The notes: generated by a model from the letters alone, not told the origin. Positions 1,180 to 19,407 are shown, numbered from the stretch's first letter. The stretch is 30,075 bases of DNA from a virus (IMGVR_UViG_2563366969_000005); one strand, 5' to 3'. Translations and numbers: made by a program.

Positions 1180-1518
1180 TTATTCCCAAAGTGCTGTTGC
1201 AGCATCCATTACAGGATCCAAAGGAATTTTTACGCCTGCATACTCCGGGCTATCTTTCCAAACAGTATCAATATTGCTCCCCTCAAGCTTTCCAGACTTT
1301 ACTCCATCAATCGCAAAACCATTTAATGGGTATCGGTCATCTGTTGCTTTGTCGTACACAAAGGCATATTTACCGTTGACACAAGACACCGTAGCTTTTT
1401 CAAAAGTTAACGGCCAATCCTCACCAAACTTAGCGCCATCTAAATCCTGTGTTTTTTCAGCGGCTGAGGCTCCAAAAGAAAGGGTAAGAAGCAGAGCTAA
1501 AAAGAGTTTACATTTCAT
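1180..1518 (-). CDS. Small secreted/periplasmic protein of unknown function (probable moron)
   Basis: Internal ATG at 1518 chosen over the 136-aa ORF-track start. It is preceded by AAGGGA 6-7 nt upstream and starts 8 bp after the repressor stop. N-terminus MKCKLFLALLLTLSFGASAA looks like a signal peptide with an A-S-A cleavage site. Composition is visibly lower in G+C than the flanking int and repressor genes. Confidence 0.65.
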   Translation of the reverse strand: MKCKLFLALLLTLSFGASAAEKTQDLDGAKFGEDWPLTFEKATVSCVNGKYAFVYDKATDDRYPLNGFAIDGVKSGKLEGSNIDTVWKDSPEYAGVKIPLDPVMDAATALWE

Positions 1519-1526
1519 AATGTCCC

Positions 1527-2387
1527 TTACACGTGTTTTTCCAATGTGAAAACTACAGCCCCGGCAGGAGTAATGTCTGTAATGTTGCATTCAAACTCAG
1601 CAGACTTATTTGACAACCTGACTTTTCCACCGGGCAAGCGAATTACATCAAAAACATCAAGAGCGCCGTCGATATCAATTAACCAGCGACCATTACTTAT
1701 ATTCGAAGCAGAACAGTCGACAAGCCAAGAGGCAGCTACACCGTCAACAAAAATCAATTCCCCTGAGTTAGAAGGAATCATTGAGGGGTCAGGATGCCAC
1801 GTTCCTGCATCCTTAAGCTCACCAGATTCAAGACGAGATTTTTTAATAGAAAAACCAGATGTGACATCTTCCCTGTTAGCTCGCATTTGCCCCTTGCCTG
1901 TTGCTAACCATTCCAGTGACGTATCGGTATCAAGAGCGCATGTAACAACAACATCACCAGGGAAAAAATCTCGCCTTACCCATGTGCTAATTGTGCCAGA
2001 GGAAATGCCGAGCAAATCACCGAGCTCCTTTTGCATGGTAAAGCCATACGCATCAAGAATCCTACGCAAAACGGTTTTACCACCATTCGTCATAATCTCG
2101 TCATAAAGCTCTTTGCCTTTTAACTTGCAACTGGCTCGCTCGTGATTTGCATTTGCAAGTTCTCCATTTACAAGCCAATTGATATCAGCTCCCGTGTCAA
2201 GACAACACCTAACTATGACATTGCCAGGTATTGCATCACGCTGAACCCAGCCGCTAACGCTGTGTTTAGCGATACCTAGCAGGTCAGCCAAATCCTTTTG
2301 CATCTTGACCCCATAGGCTGACATTAAGCGTTCCAATACGCCGTTCGTTGCACTAACACGCCACTGAACATCAAGCTCAGAACTCAT
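1527..2387 (-). CDS. Prophage repressor, CI-type, with tandemly duplicated N-terminal HTH domain
   Basis: 286-aa ORF with AGGGG Shine-Dalgarno upstream of the ATG at 2387. Residues about 15-78 and 104-168 are clear paralogous copies (shared motifs AYG..MQK.L.DLLGI, W..RD..PG.V.V.C.LDT, WL..G). Transcribed divergently from the Cox/Apl-CII operon, as expected for the immunity repressor. Confidence 0.85.
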   Translation of the reverse strand: MSSELDVQWRVSATNGVLERLMSAYGVKMQKDLADLLGIAKHSVSGWVQRDAIPGNVIVRCCLDTGADINWLVNGELANANHERASCKLKGKELYDEIMTNGGKTVLRRILDAYGFTMQKELGDLLGISSGTISTWVRRDFFPGDVVVTCALDTDTSLEWLATGKGQMRANREDVTSGFSIKKSRLESGELKDAGTWHPDPSMIPSNSGELIFVDGVAASWLVDCSASNISNGRWLIDIDGALDVFDVIRLPGGKVRLSNKSAEFECNITDITPAGAVVFTLEKHV

Positions 2388-4449: not shown

Positions 4450-6672
4450 TTGGCTGTTCAATTCGCTTATCCGTGGAACGTCCCACGGTCGGCAATCTCC
4501 AGCCCATACCTTACTTATGAGCAACAGCAAAGCCGCGACCGTATGTTCGCGGCTTTGCTGCATGCAAAAAAGGTGCTTTCTCTCCAGCCCGACTGCGTGC
4601 GGTTAGATGTTTATCGCACTGCTGCGGTGCTGGAACAAAATCAGGGTAGTCAACGAGCCAATGCATTTTTAATCAGCTTCTGCAAAAAGGCATTGCCGCG
4701 TCTTGAACTGGTCGCAAAAAAATACGAATGCGCTGGTATCAACAGCAAGGTATCAACCGCTGTTTTTGGAAGTCATTTTGATACTCAGCAAATGCAATAT
4801 CTGTCGTCACGCATGGTTAATATGGTCGCCCGATATAACCGTCTCCCGGACATGTCGCGCGCTGATGTTGACCTGTTGGCCGCTGATATTGCTAATTTCA
4901 TTCGTGGTGAACTTGCCAACATTAATGACCACGGATTCGGCGAGCTTAAAACGCTGTACACCTGGTATATTCGTGCTGGCTTTATTTCCCTCCAATTCAA
5001 CGTTATCCCACCACATTGGGAGCGGGTTGAAAAAAAATATGTCGGTGCGGATGAAATCGCACCGGCTATCGCCAAAATGTTTAACGATGGGTGGTGGCGC
5101 GGTCTTTTGCGCCGTGTAGCAGCTACGTGGCGCGAACACCTGCAAATTGCAGTCGGCAACGTCAGTAAGAAAAAAAACACTTACGCGAGTAAAAACTGCG
5201 TGACTGACTGGCGTGAACAAAAGCGCCGCACTCGTGAATTTCTCAAAGGTCTGGATCTCGAAGACGAAGACGGCAACCGTATCAGCCTAATTGAAAAATA
5301 TGATGGCTCAGTTGCTAACCCTGCGATTCGCCGCTGTGAGCTCATGACCCGCATTCGTGGGTTTGAAAACATCTGTAATGAGCTCGGTTATGTCGGTGAG
5401 TTTTACACTCTAACCGCGCCGTCAAAATATCACGCCACGACTAAAGCCGGTTACCGTAACAGCAAATGGAGCGGTGCCAGCCCGGCTGACACGCAAAACT
5501 ATCTAACCGGTATCTGGGCGCGTATCCGTGCCAAACTACATCGGGAAGATGTCCGTATTTTCGGTATTCGTGTCGCCGAGCCCCATCACGACGGCACTCC
5601 ACACTGGCACATGCTGATGTTCATGCTGCCGGAAGATGTTGAATATGTTCGCTCCATCGTCCGTAAATACGCATGGAAAGAAGACCGCCACGAACTGAAA
5701 AGCGATAAATCCCAAAAAGCACGTTTCCACGCGGAGTCCATTGACCCGGAGAAAGGCAGCGCAACCGGCTATGTTGCTAAATACATTTCAAAAAATATCG
5801 ACGGTTATGCTCTCGATGGTGAAACCGATGATGAAAGCGGTGAGCTGCTGAAAGAGACAGCCCCCGCCGTTTCAGCATGGGCTGCGCGCTGGCACATCCG
5901 TCAGTTTCAGTTTATTGGTGGTGCGCCGGTGACGGTTTACCGTGAGTTGCGTCGCCTCGCTGATACCGAAACCGCGCACGGTCTGAGCGTTGAGTTTGCC
6001 GCCGTCCATGATGCCGCCGACGCTGGTGACTGGGCTGGTTATGTTAATGCTCAGGGTGGGCCGTTTGTCCGTCGCGATGATTTACAGGTGCGCACACTGT
6101 ATGAACCGCGTACCGAGCTTAATCAGTACGGTGAGGAAACGGTATGTATTAAGGGGGTCTACGATTCCTCCATAGGTGCAGGAAGCCCGATTTTAACCCG
6201 GCTCACTCAGTGGAAGATTGTTCCGAAGCGTGCTGTTGATTTGGCCGTTGACCTTCAGGACGGCAAAGCCGTCCCTCGGAGTTCTGTCAATAACTGTACG
6301 GGAAGCGAAAGCGATCCACCGATACTGGATTTAACAAAACCACTGAGTCGGCGTGAAAGACGAGAATTGACCAACCGACTCAGGAAGCAAAAGCCAGCAG
6401 TACGGCGAAAATTCATCCACGGAACGGATGAGCAAAACGCAGCTATAGCTAAAACTATCGATGAGATACATCTGACAACCGGCATTAATATCAGCCGGGG
6501 CGAAGCCCTGCACCTGATGGCCGGTGGTAAAAGTTGTTTTGATGGTAAATGGCTACGCGGAACGGCCAAAGGAGAAATATTTTCCGCAGCACCATCGCAT
6601 GAGGCTAAAGCTCGGAAAATCCTTAATCGTGTTGCGGCGATGGCTGAAGCATCAAAACCAATACATGAGTAA
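4450..6672 (+). CDS. A: Replication initiation endonuclease gpA (rolling-circle Rep, P2 A-like)
   Basis: 740-aa ORF with an HUH-type motif (PHWHMLMF) and a downstream catalytic tyrosine context (GYVAKYISKN). The start is a TTG at 4450 after a G-run; an in-frame ATG at 4543 is an alternative. Confidence 0.9.
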   Translation: MAVQFAYPWNVPRSAISSPYLTYEQQQSRDRMFAALLHAKKVLSLQPDCVRLDVYRTAAVLEQNQGSQRANAFLISFCKKALPRLELVAKKYECAGINSKVSTAVFGSHFDTQQMQYLSSRMVNMVARYNRLPDMSRADVDLLAADIANFIRGELANINDHGFGELKTLYTWYIRAGFISLQFNVIPPHWERVEKKYVGADEIAPAIAKMFNDGWWRGLLRRVAATWREHLQIAVGNVSKKKNTYASKNCVTDWREQKRRTREFLKGLDLEDEDGNRISLIEKYDGSVANPAIRRCELMTRIRGFENICNELGYVGEFYTLTAPSKYHATTKAGYRNSKWSGASPADTQNYLTGIWARIRAKLHREDVRIFGIRVAEPHHDGTPHWHMLMFMLPEDVEYVRSIVRKYAWKEDRHELKSDKSQKARFHAESIDPEKGSATGYVAKYISKNIDGYALDGETDDESGELLKETAPAVSAWAARWHIRQFQFIGGAPVTVYRELRRLADTETAHGLSVEFAAVHDAADAGDWAGYVNAQGGPFVRRDDLQVRTLYEPRTELNQYGEETVCIKGVYDSSIGAGSPILTRLTQWKIVPKRAVDLAVDLQDGKAVPRSSVNNCTGSESDPPILDLTKPLSRRERRELTNRLRKQKPAVRRKFIHGTDEQNAAIAKTIDEIHLTTGINISRGEALHLMAGGKSCFDGKWLRGTAKGEIFSAAPSHEAKARKILNRVAAMAEASKPIHE

Positions 6673-8264: not shown

Positions 8265-8283
8265 GGCGTGGCGGGGAAAGCAT
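8265..8283 (+). other. cos: cos site (19-nt cohesive-end sequence, 186-type)
   Basis: GGCGTGGCGGGGAAAGCAT. As I recall it this is the 186 cohesive end; P2 is GGCGAGGCGGGGAAAGCAC. It lies between the replication/SOS region and the portal gene, as expected in an integrated P2-family genome. Confidence 0.65.
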
Positions 8284-8502
8284 TGCGCGCCAGCAGTGAT
8301 GCGTAATAATAAAAATTATCCTCTGAGCGCGTCGTGATGGCGCTGTCGTGGTCGCTGCTGGTTCGTTGGTGGTCGGGTGTGTTCGTGCGCGTGAGACGCA
8401 TCTGATGCGTGATGGTGGTGTGCATGGAAAAGCCACCAGGAGCAGCGGCTTTACAGGAGTGGCAGGATTCAAACTGCTAATTATGTTTCTACTATGATTA
8501 AA

Positions 8503-9507
8503 CTAATTTACATGTATGTAGAGTTCACCGTCGCCAGACCAATCGGGACACTCTAAAACAAGCCCAAACTGCTTGAATATTTCATCAATGATTATTGTTA
8601 TCTCCCGAAAATCACCAAAACCTGTAATGTGCTGGTCATTAAACTTCCCATAAAGATTCTGAAAAGCAATGCCTAATTCTGATAATTGATATCTTATATT
8701 TGAGTTGGATAGTGTAAGGGATAGCTTTGGATCGTATTCTTTAATATTGATGTTTAGAGAATGGACATAACCCATCGCATAAGCATAAGAGTTGATGATT
8801 AGCCTGATACGTTTTTTTACTTCGAGATACATGTCATTCAGAGAAATATTACCGTACTTATAACCCCAGATGAGTTTTTCAATCTCGTCAGATACTTCAT
8901 TTACAACAGTGTCAAGATTCTCTAAAAATAAATCGATAGTTTCTTGAGGGGCAGACCCCGAAGACATGTAATTAGCGAGATATTCAGACCATGCACGCGT
9001 GGCTGAGATAAGAAGCGCGCTACCATACTCGTTGACTGTAAAGTTTTGGGCTAAGCATGTTAGTAAGTTTTTTTCATGTACGTGCACTAATTCATGGTGA
9101 ATGCGATGGATGACTGCGAGGTATCCTTCTTCTTTCAGTTTTAAGAAGCTACCATCATTGAAAAGCTCAACAAAAAAATCAATCGATAGCACAAGGGTAT
9201 ATTCTTCACATAGCCCATCATTGCCAATTTTTGTTACTAACTGCCCGACGGCTGCGCCCTGTTTGCTATTGGTAAATGAACTAGGGGATTTGTGTTGGTA
9301 AGAGGATGTTACCTTTTGAAGAGCTTCACTGAAGTTATAGGAAACAATCACGCATTTTAATTTGGAGATATCAAGATTGAGATTTTTTGTTAAAGCTCGG
9401 ATAGCTTCTAGTGTGAAATTACCGATATTATTTGCTTCTTGCTCAGTAGCGAAACCTTCGAGGGTTATTTTAAAATCAGTTTCCAAAATATTAATCTCCG
9501 CGCCCAT
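8503..9507 (-). CDS. AT-rich cargo protein of unknown function with His-rich HExxH motif; candidate anti-phage defence or exclusion gene
   Basis: 334-aa ORF, conspicuously AT-rich against a GC-rich backbone. Contains IHRIHHELVHVHEKN (HELVH is an HExxH pattern in a His cluster). Lies between cos and the portal gene, downstream of Q on the same strand. Weak Shine-Dalgarno. No family recognised. Confidence 0.8.
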   Translation of the reverse strand: MGAEINILETDFKITLEGFATEQEANNIGNFTLEAIRALTKNLNLDISKLKCVIVSYNFSEALQKVTSSYQHKSPSSFTNSKQGAAVGQLVTKIGNDGLCEEYTLVLSIDFFVELFNDGSFLKLKEEGYLAVIHRIHHELVHVHEKNLLTCLAQNFTVNEYGSALLISATRAWSEYLANYMSSGSAPQETIDLFLENLDTVVNEVSDEIEKLIWGYKYGNISLNDMYLEVKKRIRLIINSYAYAMGYVHSLNINIKEYDPKLSLTLSNSNIRYQLSELGIAFQNLYGKFNDQHITGFGDFREITIIIDEIFKQFGLVLECPDWSGDGELYIHVN

Positions 9508-9525
9508 TGTTTTGATATTCGATGC

Positions 9526-9554
9526 ACTATAGCTTTCGCAGATTGCATCTTCAA
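9526..9554 (-). promoter_or_regulatory. Putative sigma70 promoter for the cargo gene at 8503-9507
   Basis: On the minus strand: TTGAAG (-35, plus coordinates 9549-9554), a 17-nt spacer, then TATAGT (-10, plus coordinates 9526-9531), about 20 nt upstream of the ATG at 9507. Lies in the 77-bp gap after the Q stop. Confidence 0.45.
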
Positions 9555-9584
9555 TAATGAGCGCAGAGATTGTGGCGGCCTAAG

Positions 9585-10631
9585 TTATTCTGGGTTGTCG
9601 AGGGTGTACTCTTTGAATCTGATGACCTCCATGCCGAGCCAGTCATTTACCTCCCTGAACCTGTCCTGTAGCGGCGACAGCTCGTTGCGCACAAATACCT
9701 TTGCCACCTTCTCAACATCACCGAGTGAACCGATATTCTCGGGCTTGCCGCCCATGAGCTGGAACGGTACGCGGTGCGCGTCCATCAGATCGGCGGCACT
9801 GGCCTTCTTGATGTTGAAAAAGTCATCCTTTGTGGCGACCTCGCTCAGTGGCACGATTTTGATGCCGTCCGGTTTTCCGCCGGGAGCGTAGAAAAACAGG
9901 TTCTTAAAGTTGCCGAGCCCTTTTGAGTTGCGCATCGCCTCGCGCAGCGATTCGACGTCGGTCGCGCTCTGCGCCGGGTCAGTCACATACATGATGTAAC
10001 CCGCGTGCGCGCCGTTCTGATAATACTTGCGGCGGAACAGCGTCGCGGATTCATTCAGCCAGGCGGAATTTAGCGCGCTGAGATATTCGGGCAGGCCGTA
10101 AATCTCCTGATTAATGTCGGGCTCCAGCAGGTGAAACACGGTATCAGGCGCGAACTCGTGCGGCTGGGTGAAGTTTTCCACAAACCAGAAAATCGAATCG
10201 TCGACTCCGCGTCGGGTGTATTTGGCTGGCGAGGCCAGCAGTTTGATTAACTGGCCGGTGACGCTGTGGCGCTGCTCAAGAAAGGCGTTACCGAACACCA
10301 GATAATCGAGCGCAAAGCGGCTGAAATCCTGACGGGATAACAACGGGTGCGGAATGTAGGTGCTCGCGAGCACGTTACGCTTAACATAAATTGGCGAGCT
10401 GTGATGCACGGCAGAGCGCAGGCTCTTTGCCAGCCCTGAGAAGCTGACCGGCGGCTCGTACCATTTGCCGTTACTGATGCACTCGACGTAATCCAGAATG
10501 TCGCGCTTATCGAGTACCGGCACCGGCTCGCCGAAGGTGAACGCTGTCGTTTTTGGCGGTGTGCTGGCGGTCAGTTGTTGTGGTTTGCTGGCCTTTTGTG
10601 CGTTGGCTTTACGGGATTTTTGTTTACCCAT
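9585..10631 (-). CDS. Q: Portal protein (P2 gpQ-like)
   Basis: 348-aa ORF immediately downstream of the large terminase on the same strand, with the size and position of P2 Q. Assigned by synteny and length. Confidence 0.88.
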   Translation of the reverse strand: MGKQKSRKANAQKASKPQQLTASTPPKTTAFTFGEPVPVLDKRDILDYVECISNGKWYEPPVSFSGLAKSLRSAVHHSSPIYVKRNVLASTYIPHPLLSRQDFSRFALDYLVFGNAFLEQRHSVTGQLIKLLASPAKYTRRGVDDSIFWFVENFTQPHEFAPDTVFHLLEPDINQEIYGLPEYLSALNSAWLNESATLFRRKYYQNGAHAGYIMYVTDPAQSATDVESLREAMRNSKGLGNFKNLFFYAPGGKPDGIKIVPLSEVATKDDFFNIKKASAADLMDAHRVPFQLMGGKPENIGSLGDVEKVAKVFVRNELSPLQDRFREVNDWLGMEVIRFKEYTLDNPE

Positions 10632-18380: not shown

Positions 18381-18442
18381 TAGAGGTGGACTGGTGTCTA
18401 GGTGGGCGTGCCCACTGAGTTGGGTTCGATTCCCTAACCTCG
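18381..18442 (+). other. tRNA-like fragment (T-arm/T-loop GGTTCGATTCC with partial acceptor 3' strand); not an intact tRNA
   Basis: GGTTCGATTCC (18423-18433) is the canonical T-loop consensus, flanked by an imperfect T-stem (TTGGG/CCCTA) and preceded by a short hairpin (GTGGG-CGTG-CCCAC). There is not enough sequence for D and anticodon arms. It overlaps the stop codon of the minus-strand cargo gene. Confidence 0.35.
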
Positions 18443-19270
18443 TATTATTCCTCTCGATATTTTTATTGCTGGGTTTTCCTTTCTTATTTCATTTTTAATT
18501 TGCTCATCACAAATTAAATAATCTATGTTTTTTGCTTTAACAAGTTCTTTAACGCTAATGTTAATTGAATTTAATAGATTTGCATTCCGCATGTTAGCCC
18601 CTTCATAAGTAACGGATTTAAAATCACATCCTTTTAATATGCAGCTTTTCATTTCGCCATCTGTAAAATACCCCCCTTCAAAACTGCAGTTTTCGAAAGT
18701 GACATTTTGAAAACATGTATTAAATGCCTTAATATTTCTTAGCTTGCAGTTTTTGAATTTAACACTCTTAACTCTATTGCCTGTAATATTTAGAGCTTGA
18801 ATTGTGCAATTATCGAAAGAACAATCTCTAATGTATGATTCGCTCATATTCAAGCCGGTTAAGTCAGCGTCTTTAAAATGTAAATATTTGATAGTGGACA
18901 TTTTATCAAGTTCAATCCTTGGAACTTGAATGTTATATATTCCTTTAGCATTTAACTGACGTATGATTTTTATCTTCATAATATTCAGTTCTGCAGAAGA
19001 ATGCTTTGCCAGATTTTCAAGATCTTCAATTAGTTCGTGAATAGCATCTTTATTTTGCCTTTTATTTTCAAAATAGTAAAGAATCACACCCAAAACAAGA
19101 AAGTCTAAAATTGAAGAATTTGCATTAACAAGAAAATTCTCCATGAATTTTGAGTTGTAGTTATCATTATAAACAGACAACCCTACTATAAGCCCGGAGT
19201 ATAAAAAAAAGATACCTATAATATATTTCATATTGCTTATTGTACGCCTAAAAGATGAAGTTCTTTTCAT
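18434..19270 (-). CDS. AT-rich membrane-anchored pentapeptide-repeat protein (cargo gene between S and V)
   Basis: Start chosen at MKRTSSF... (ATG at 19270, GGCAGGTAG upstream); the ORF-track start is 19315. Two hydrophobic helices (YIIGIFFLYSGLIVGLSVY, ILDFLVLGVILYYF) are followed by repeats of the pentapeptide type (ADLTGLNMSES, CSFDNCTIQALNITGNRVKSVKFKNCKLRNIKAFNTCFQNVTFENCSFEG...). Very AT-rich compared with its neighbours. Confidence 0.8.
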   Translation of the reverse strand: MKRTSSFRRTISNMKYIIGIFFLYSGLIVGLSVYNDNYNSKFMENFLVNANSSILDFLVLGVILYYFENKRQNKDAIHELIEDLENLAKHSSAELNIMKIKIIRQLNAKGIYNIQVPRIELDKMSTIKYLHFKDADLTGLNMSESYIRDCSFDNCTIQALNITGNRVKSVKFKNCKLRNIKAFNTCFQNVTFENCSFEGGYFTDGEMKSCILKGCDFKSVTYEGANMRNANLLNSINISVKELVKAKNIDYLICDEQIKNEIRKENPAIKISRGIIRG

Positions 19271-19407
19271 TACTACCTGCCATATGTTTTGTGTGATTTT
19301 CGAATGAGTCAACACTCAAATGATACATGAATGCACACCGAATTGTGTAGAAGAGCATACAGCTGAATCGTTTTGCTCTTGGCTTTAACAATCGGCATTC
19401 TTTTTTC

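Follow-up and report, generated by a model that had tools for sequence, protein, structure and literature searches.

The window analysed here, the whole 30,075-nucleotide stretch of DNA from the virus IMGVR_UViG_2563366969_000005, is a prophage of the phage-186/PSP3 type (family Peduoviridae) whose annotated genes follow the order found in 186. Between the stop codon of its portal gene and the terminator of its late operon lies an additional AT-rich gene on the minus strand, called the zincin gene below, that encodes a candidate zinc metallopeptidase. It is well supported that this gene is an insertion, that it forms a mobile single-gene cassette carrying its own signals and that its product is a gluzincin of an unnamed family that conserves its active site. 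A role in anti-phage immunity, after the manner of the protease Lit, is proposed more tentatively.

The insert can be delimited as positions 8449–9584 (1,136 bp comprising promoter and gene, G+C 0.377) because the alignment with 186 fixes both of its boundaries. Window positions 8265–8438 correspond to 186 positions 1–175, from cos to the middle of the terminator tW (164–187), within which the homology ends; it resumes at window position 9585, the portal stop codon, which corresponds to 186 position 196 and continues onward from there. The 19-nucleotide cohesive end of cos (GGCGTGGCGGGGAAAGCAT, 8265–8283) aligns with 186 positions 1–19, annotated as cos in that phage, and is invariant in 13 related loci. 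The portal gene (W in 186, Q in P2; 9585–10631, minus strand) lies directly upstream of the zincin gene in the same orientation and is 95% identical in nucleotides to 186 W across the 416 bases starting at its stop codon. More generally, matches of about 90% link the cos end and the portal and terminase genes to 186, to PSP3 and to numerous phages of Salmonella and Yersinia. Positions 8426–8449 (minus strand), downstream of the zincin gene, hold the intrinsic late-operon terminator equivalent to tW of 186 and tQ of P2, with a terminator-like hairpin (8446–8432) followed by TTTTCC. The terminator stem is retained in relatives, with some variation in stem and loop (AGCCGC...GCGGCT in most of them, AGCCGC...GTGGCT in the window).

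In both P2 (cosL 1–19, tQ 160–181, Q stop 187) and 186 (cos 1–19, tW 164–187, W stop 196), the terminator is the sole content of the 186–195 bp that separate the portal stop from cos. The first-pass annotation, made from the window alone, had noted that Q abuts cos in P2, as these maps confirm, and had correctly placed cos at 8265–8283, the Q stop at 9585 and, between them, a minus-strand open reading frame (ORF) at 8503–9507, 334 aa as called. The contrast that it drew between an AT-rich gene and a GC-rich backbone also holds gene by gene: G+C and G+C at third codon positions (GC3) are 0.375 and 0.36 for this ORF versus 0.556 and 0.71 for the portal gene and 0.569 and 0.72 for the terminase gene, the whole window having a G+C of 0.524.

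The translated product is probably slightly shorter than the 334 aa of both the first-pass annotation and RefSeq (WP_001580913.1, family phrog_11743). Translation very probably starts at the TTG at 9486 (codon 8), so that the revised coding sequence, 8503–9486 on the minus strand, would specify 327 aa plus the stop. A GGAG at 9499–9496 stands 9 nt ahead of this TTG, and the arrangement GGAG-N9/10-TTG/ATG-GAA is kept in nearly all homologues, even where the sequence further upstream is unrelated; it is found, for example, in L006, L028, L030, L034, L116 and L120, in which the upstream frame differs (labels L002–L121 for loci and P0135–P0233 for proteins denote the sampled relatives of the comparison set). 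The start is followed by a conserved N-terminus, M/L-E-x-D. The shorter product is preferred because of this conserved layout and because residues 1–7 of the 334-aa call have a predicted local distance difference test score (pLDDT) below 50 in the AlphaFold2 model. The first seven codons of the annotated ORF, from the ATG at 9507 (9487–9507, minus strand), would then be a 5' untranslated region with the ribosome-binding site.

A sigma-70-type promoter specific to the gene had also been proposed at first pass (−35 TTGAAG, 17-nt spacer, −10 TATAGT; 9526–9554, minus strand, 9 of 12 positions matching). The two hexamers exist, but judged in the window alone they carry little weight, as the number of matches of this grade in the region is in line with chance (5, against 3.7 ± 1.9 expected); it is comparison with homologues that supports a private promoter. 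Both hexamers are retained in relatives of 88–99% identity. Moreover, TTGAAA-18-TATAGT and TTGAGG-17-TATAGT occur 39–41 nt before the start codon in Serratia (L034) and Enterobacter (L118). In these two loci, the protein is 59–63% identical, the spacer sequence is not conserved and a resolvase gene takes the place of the portal gene upstream. Such conservation in an unrelated context indicates that the promoter moves with the gene.

The encoded protein has no match in Pfam, NCBIfam or PADLOC, and all its database copies are annotated as hypothetical proteins. In PHROGs, it corresponds to phrog_11743, of unknown function, and to two half-gene families. A word-indexed search retrieved 78 clusters from Enterobacterales, Shewanella and Psychromonas, complete members being about 323–347 aa long; an exhaustive profile search extended the family to 338 clusters at 50% identity, nearly all of them standalone proteins of 305–375 aa. 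The statement of the first-pass annotation that the protein belongs to no named system thus stands: its accession was found neither in the literature nor in the supplementary tables of Rousset 2022, both searched by accession, PADLOC v2 contains no validated defence system homologous to it, and a literature search for zincin or metalloprotease antiphage systems returned nothing matching. As a separate observation, truncated alleles of 106–113 aa (P0231, P0233) are present on dozens of Escherichia coli contigs, and the two half-gene families, phrog_28537 and phrog_30021, are the N- and C-terminal halves of the gene, so that recurrent pseudogenisation seems to occur.

The histidine cluster IHRIHHELVHVHEKN (residues 133–147) contains the HExxH pattern already pointed out at first pass, and its conservation is far from a chance resemblance. 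In 29 sequences, down to 42% identity, H137, H138, E139, H142, E145, N147 and the block W173-S-E175-Y-x-A-N179 are invariant. In a superfamily alignment of 77 sequences at about 20% identity, H138 is kept in 76, E139 and H142 in all 77, H144 in 62 and an acidic residue (D/E145) in 70, while W173 is found in 72 and both E175 and A178 in 76. The HExxH motif itself (H138-E139-L-V-H142, codons at 9082–9096, minus strand) lies in a predicted helix spanning residues 126–148. E175, the putative third zinc ligand, belongs to a W-[SD]-E-Y-x-A block (W173-S174-E175 codons at 8983–8991, minus strand) in helix 160–185, 33 residues after H142 (32–41 in the family). An HExxH motif with a glutamate on the next helix is the gluzincin pattern.

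The predicted structure agrees with this reading. The AlphaFold2 model (pLDDT 90.4, predicted template modelling score 0.89) has a thermolysin-like zincin fold, with an alpha/beta subdomain before the active-site helices and, after them, a helical bundle (188–313) and a small hairpin; its best fold matches are nearly all true peptidases. This C-terminal bundle measures about 125 residues and is a family-specific feature. No hydrophobic segment was detected in the protein and its N-terminus is acidic, from which a cytoplasmic location is predicted. By motif and modelled fold, the protein is therefore a gluzincin that belongs to no named peptidase family, and a candidate zinc metallopeptidase in which E175 would complete the metal site.

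Compared with the gluzincins of clan MA(E), above all the M1 aminopeptidases but also M9, M30, M36 and M4, the protein shows no membership at the sequence level and differs by an extended HExxHxH[DE] motif, a compact standalone form of 327 aa and a C-terminal helical bundle of its own. In addition, it lacks the GxMEN motif of M1 ("MEN" is absent) and its family has an H-to-E spacing of 32–41 instead of 18–20. M1 membership was rejected, as profile comparison with E. coli PepN by hhalign (probability 0.3%) aligned only the HExxH helix and no Peptidase_M1 Pfam match was obtained. A search of the PDB with the protein and with the 77-sequence profile likewise gave no meaningful sequence match. An anti-repressor of the ImmA/IrrE type (Peptidase_M78) was also rejected, since the protein gives no M78 signal and its gene has no adjacent repressor gene.

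Lit, the product of a single gene of the E. coli cryptic prophage e14, is annotated as "cell death peptidase Lit"; when triggered by a phage peptide, this HExxH protease cleaves EF-Tu and so brings about abortive infection. Lit and, by prediction, the window protein are both cytoplasmic HExxH zinc proteases of about 300 aa specified by one prophage gene, and the two have similar local motifs (ILHHEISHV in Lit, RIHHELVHV in the window protein); they differ in genomic slot and in the domains that flank the motif. Lit would be the best functional analogue for a one-protein proteolytic abortive infection. Membership of the Lit family (Peptidase_U49) was nevertheless rejected, as profile comparison aligns nothing but the HExxH helix.

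The foreign origin of the gene is apparent from its distribution. In a survey anchored on the portal protein, which yielded 80 IMG/VR loci, 78 of them with a recognisable cos (these loci are not independent samples), the interval between portal stop and cos is empty in 65 (155–182 bp), contains a 75-aa gene, apparently DUF2188-like by similarity to an annotated one, in 7 (377–491 bp) and contains larger cargo in the other 6 (1.3 kb or more). Only one of these six carries the zincin gene, which is absent from the other 77 portal-anchored relatives, from 186 and from P2. The occupant of the slot therefore varies among relatives. Likewise, the gene was found in a single one of 37 matching phage records and in 28 of 5,426 complete E. 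coli genomes; among contigs, hundreds from E. coli encode the exact protein, and each of its close variants is present on at least 1,000 from Salmonella. The horizontal acquisition postulated at first pass is thus supported by the sharp break in composition, the absence from 186, P2 and most relatives and the rarity among complete E. coli genomes, and the gene can be regarded as horizontally acquired cargo on these comparative grounds.

The five other large-cargo loci harbour four distinct AT-rich two-gene cassettes (G+C 0.34–0.39) that are convergent to the portal gene (L035 7183–8729; L075 7127–8667; L100 7057–8800; L108 7140–9091; L110 1408–3074). One cassette encodes a DUF262 protein that matches NsnA and PD-T4-2_A, together with a 221-aa partner, and another a DndB/DpdB-like protein with a 322-aa partner. 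The remaining two pairs have no PADLOC match and encode proteins of 274 aa and 241 aa, the latter with a hydrophobic N-terminus, and of 327 aa and 228 aa, the latter hydrophobic. All four cassettes are candidate defence systems in their own right. The small, conserved gene of about 75 aa (MDNYHITKDGDKWK...) occupies the slot of L036, L042, L043, L063, L064, L077 and L089, about 150–500 bp past the portal stop.

The P2-family hotspot for anti-phage systems has been defined as the whole cos-proximal gpA–gpQ interval (PMC9122126), and four new systems have been found at this position (PMC9519451). The zincin gene shares with the cargo of this hotspot (old, tin and the systems of Rousset and of Vassallo) its interval, its AT-rich, foreign composition, its variable presence and co-occupants with defence-type domains. 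The first-pass annotation was right to assign it to the hotspot but had equated its site with the tin/old locus, and this does not hold. In P2, tin and old are found on the gpA side of cos and have a transcript of their own, whereas the zincin gene lies on the opposite, portal side, before the late terminator, within the late unit and co-oriented with it. The portal side of cos within the late operon is shown to be a second, rarely used landing pad of this hotspot. The classical hotspot corresponds to the cos-to-gpA distance, which is 0.6–4.5 kb in the surveyed loci. In the window, the genes of the gpA-to-cos part (G+C 0.46) are all small, and relatives have them annotated as UV-induction (Tum-like) and DinI-family genes, so that the zincin gene is the sole sizeable cargo of the hotspot in this prophage. 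The only phage record with the zincin gene, vB_EcoM-613R3 (ON470592, L002), also has a 942-bp hypothetical gene (4947–5888) on the gpA side of cos, which is absent from the annotation of L003, a strain identical to the window; the two sides of cos thus appear to vary independently.

Beyond this slot, homologues of the gene are found in several types of mobile elements. All 16 loci with at least 88% identity, which belong to 186-like prophages of Escherichia and Citrobacter genomes (L004, L005) and to IMG/VR contigs, have the order portal, zincin gene, cos, gpA; close protein homologues are also annotated in Salmonella. At 40–63% identity, homologues are solitary cargo in various elements. In a second P2-like lineage, whose portal is only 32–34% identical, the order is portal, ogr, zincin gene, gpA; there, homologues of 50–58% identity lie about 50 nt after ogr without a visible promoter. 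A CTX-type filamentous prophage (L121, 2948–12128) encodes RstA/Rep_trans, RstB, Zot, a zincin homologue (42%) and an integrase; the toxin genes of CTXphi occupy the position taken here by the homologue. A divergent serine recombinase gene adjoins the zincin gene in Enterobacter, Serratia and Shewanella. These resolvase-zincin units (L118 8116–9984; L034 9042–11011; L012 7040–8948) encode recombinases of 185–190 aa that diverge together with the zincin (72% and 73% identity in one comparison, 35% and 41% in another), so that the pair may be a small mobile unit of two genes. Around these resolvase-linked copies, neither inversion repeats nor an invertible promoter could be convincingly identified. 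In Enterobacter, a 75-aa DUF2188 gene (L118 7711–7938) adjoins the unit.

Other homologues are located in defence-type islands. In Psychromonas, the gene is accompanied by a type I restriction-modification system, a toxin-antitoxin fragment, VspR and helicases; in Shewanella, it adjoins a NERD-domain gene; in Kosakonia, it lies beside the YafO toxin and a P2-type tail cluster; and HEPN is also found among the neighbours of homologues in such islands. Taken as a whole, genes of this family have been captured by at least four kinds of mobile element, each time as solitary cargo. An all-against-all comparison of neighbours in 21 loci for a recurring partner gene retrieved only P2 backbone genes and, in 3 loci, the resolvase, and a toxin-antitoxin or other two-gene system was rejected on this absence of a recurring partner. 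The RefSeq/GenBank annotation includes a 61-aa hypothetical coding sequence overlapping cos (WP_024195493.1; 8240–8425, minus strand), which was also rejected as a partner: it is GC-rich backbone common to 186, where it is unannotated, and is probably a spurious call.

Two members of about 595 aa, P0135 and P0200, have an N-terminal DUF2971/PDC-S31 domain (residues 1–280) fused to the zincin and helical module. P0200 retains the zinc ligands and P0135 has lost two of them (H138R, E175A), which hints at a non-catalytic function of the module in sensing or regulation. DUF2971 is an ADP-ribosyltransferase-like domain related to DarT and AbiGi (PMC12522546), and the validated antiphage gene Aristaios encodes this domain alone (PMC11381338). 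These fusions link the zincin module to conflict systems through a toxin-type domain, although they concern only 2 of the 77 sampled members. A search of the window protein itself against Pfam and PADLOC revealed neither a DUF2971 domain nor a PDC-S31 match.

Combining these data, the following model can be drawn. A promoter-bearing cassette, with its GGAG ribosome-binding site and TTG start, has entered a 186-like prophage precisely at the junction of the portal stop and the late terminator. In the lysogen, the zincin protein would be expressed from its own promoter, its H138, H142 and E175 binding zinc and its E139 serving as the catalytic base, and would act as a one-protein anti-phage module. 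Upon infection by a competing phage, it would cleave either an essential host factor, leading to abortive infection, or a phage protein, and the helical bundle might be its sensor or auto-inhibitory part. The anti-phage function is proposed because the gene lies in the gpA–gpQ hotspot, in a slot otherwise occupied by AT-rich cassettes of DUF262/NsnA and DndB/DpdB-like types, and because its homologues are solitary in mobile elements and defence islands, two relatives are fused to DUF2971 and Lit provides a precedent. Immunity or exclusion exerted by a single protease, as by Lit, appears to be the most economical model, one that we favour with somewhat less than even confidence. The protein could further open a new class of anti-phage systems made of one protein: a standalone sensor-effector gluzincin with HExxHxH[DE] ... 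WSEY and a helical bundle, which would stop infection through triggered proteolysis of a target other than that of Lit and whose cassette would move among P2-like myoviruses, resolvase islets, filamentous phages and defence islands; this broader proposal is doubtful. The hotspot is already known, as are zincin proteases and abortive infection by proteolysis; the literature searched contains no description of the family, of its extended motif and architecture or of the use of the portal-side late-operon slot.

Several points count against an immune function. The argument for defence or abortive infection is one of location and association. The likeness to Lit does not extend beyond the motif (hhalign probability 10.8% over 19 columns, BLASTP E of 15 or more, no match to Peptidase_U49 or to the PADLOC Lit model), and neither the window protein nor 75 of the 77 superfamily members match any of the 5,027 PADLOC models. 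Foldseek gave nothing significant against PDB and BFVD, so that the fold match is remote. Three distant members (25–32% identity) lie beside putA and a PP-loop ATPase gene, beside a betaine ABC transporter and near a helicase and LigD, and such housekeeping settings imply that the family is not intrinsically devoted to defence. The other cassettes of the slot have the opposite orientation to the zincin gene. No terminator is predicted between the portal and zincin genes and, with the cassette on the portal strand ahead of tW, late transcripts are expected to read through into it; the gene should therefore also be transcribed late in the lytic cycle of its own phage, a timing that fits a benefit to this phage as well as it fits defence. 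Finally, only a little over a third of the cloned hotspot systems were active against phages (PMC9122126), and uncharacterised gene sets in these hotspots number in the hundreds, the zincin gene being one among many.

Some of these observations would suit an accessory or selfish passenger without a role in defence, either a cytoplasmic peptidase with a physiological or lysogenic-conversion function, for instance in stress-linked proteolysis, or a neutral gene carried along by recombination at cos. The housekeeping settings of distant members, the failure to detect a defence signature by PADLOC or otherwise, the truncated alleles of 106–113 aa and half-gene PHROGs that suggest frequent decay, and the fact that most cloned hotspot genes showed no defence phenotype (PMC9122126) all agree with it. 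It accounts less readily for the strong retention of catalytic residues in the mobile subfamily, for repeated capture by at least four kinds of mobile element, always of a solitary and promoter-bearing gene, and for the defence-type domains of the slot co-occupants, and on this balance such a non-defence gene is rather unlikely. The late-operon position could instead point to a protease expressed late for the benefit of the phage, which would degrade a host defence or stress protein (counter-defence) or remodel the host. The gene is on the portal strand, ahead of the retained terminator and with no predicted terminator before it; in the second P2-like lineage it follows ogr by about 50 nt, apparently co-transcribed; and even a filamentous phage carries a homologue. 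However, a purely late gene would not need a conserved private promoter, homologues are found in non-phage islets and in defence-type islands without nearby phage genes, and absence from most relatives indicates that the gene is dispensable for growth. This explanation is accordingly judged unlikely, a little more so than that of a passenger.

A further reading is that the zincin fold is catalytically silent and serves as a binding or sensor module, or that it has another chemistry, for which YbeY, acting on RNA, offers a model. With H, E, H and E kept in 76 or 77 of 77 members, and with true peptidases making up nearly all the best fold matches, we consider this improbable. A part in head morphogenesis, for example as a maturation protease, is suggested by nothing but the position beside the portal gene. 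The gene is missing from 186, P2 and 77 of 78 portal-anchored relatives, all of which make virions, its composition is foreign and homologues exist outside tailed phages; such a role is extremely improbable and was rejected on gene distribution.

The prophage carries other genes of unusual composition. A second AT-rich cargo gene (18434–19315, minus strand; 293 aa, G+C 0.30, GC3 0.28), annotated in RefSeq as encoding a pentapeptide-repeat protein, lies between tail/virion-morphogenesis and baseplate genes, a slot that presumably corresponds to that of orf30 in P2; the N-terminus of its product weakly matches PADLOC SLATT models (RTasSLATT, E 6e-5). A DUF2511-domain gene (1180–1590, minus strand, in the window; 1897–2235 in L003; G+C 0.42) is located between the integrase gene and cI. 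Minor P2 hotspots near the integrase are mentioned in a 2026 Nucleic Acids Research survey (PMC13586616).

Lit, the main known case of proteolytic single-gene immunity, was described decades ago and is narrowly distributed. Were the zincin to lack any phage phenotype, it would still represent an uncharacterised and well-conserved zinc-peptidase family of 338 clusters that has no Pfam entry. If the immune reading is true, a second, unrelated and more mobile zincin family would make triggered proteolysis a recurrent immune strategy and would provide a small, tractable protein for finding both trigger and substrate. As the gene is common, it could then influence the phage susceptibility of clinical and food isolates.

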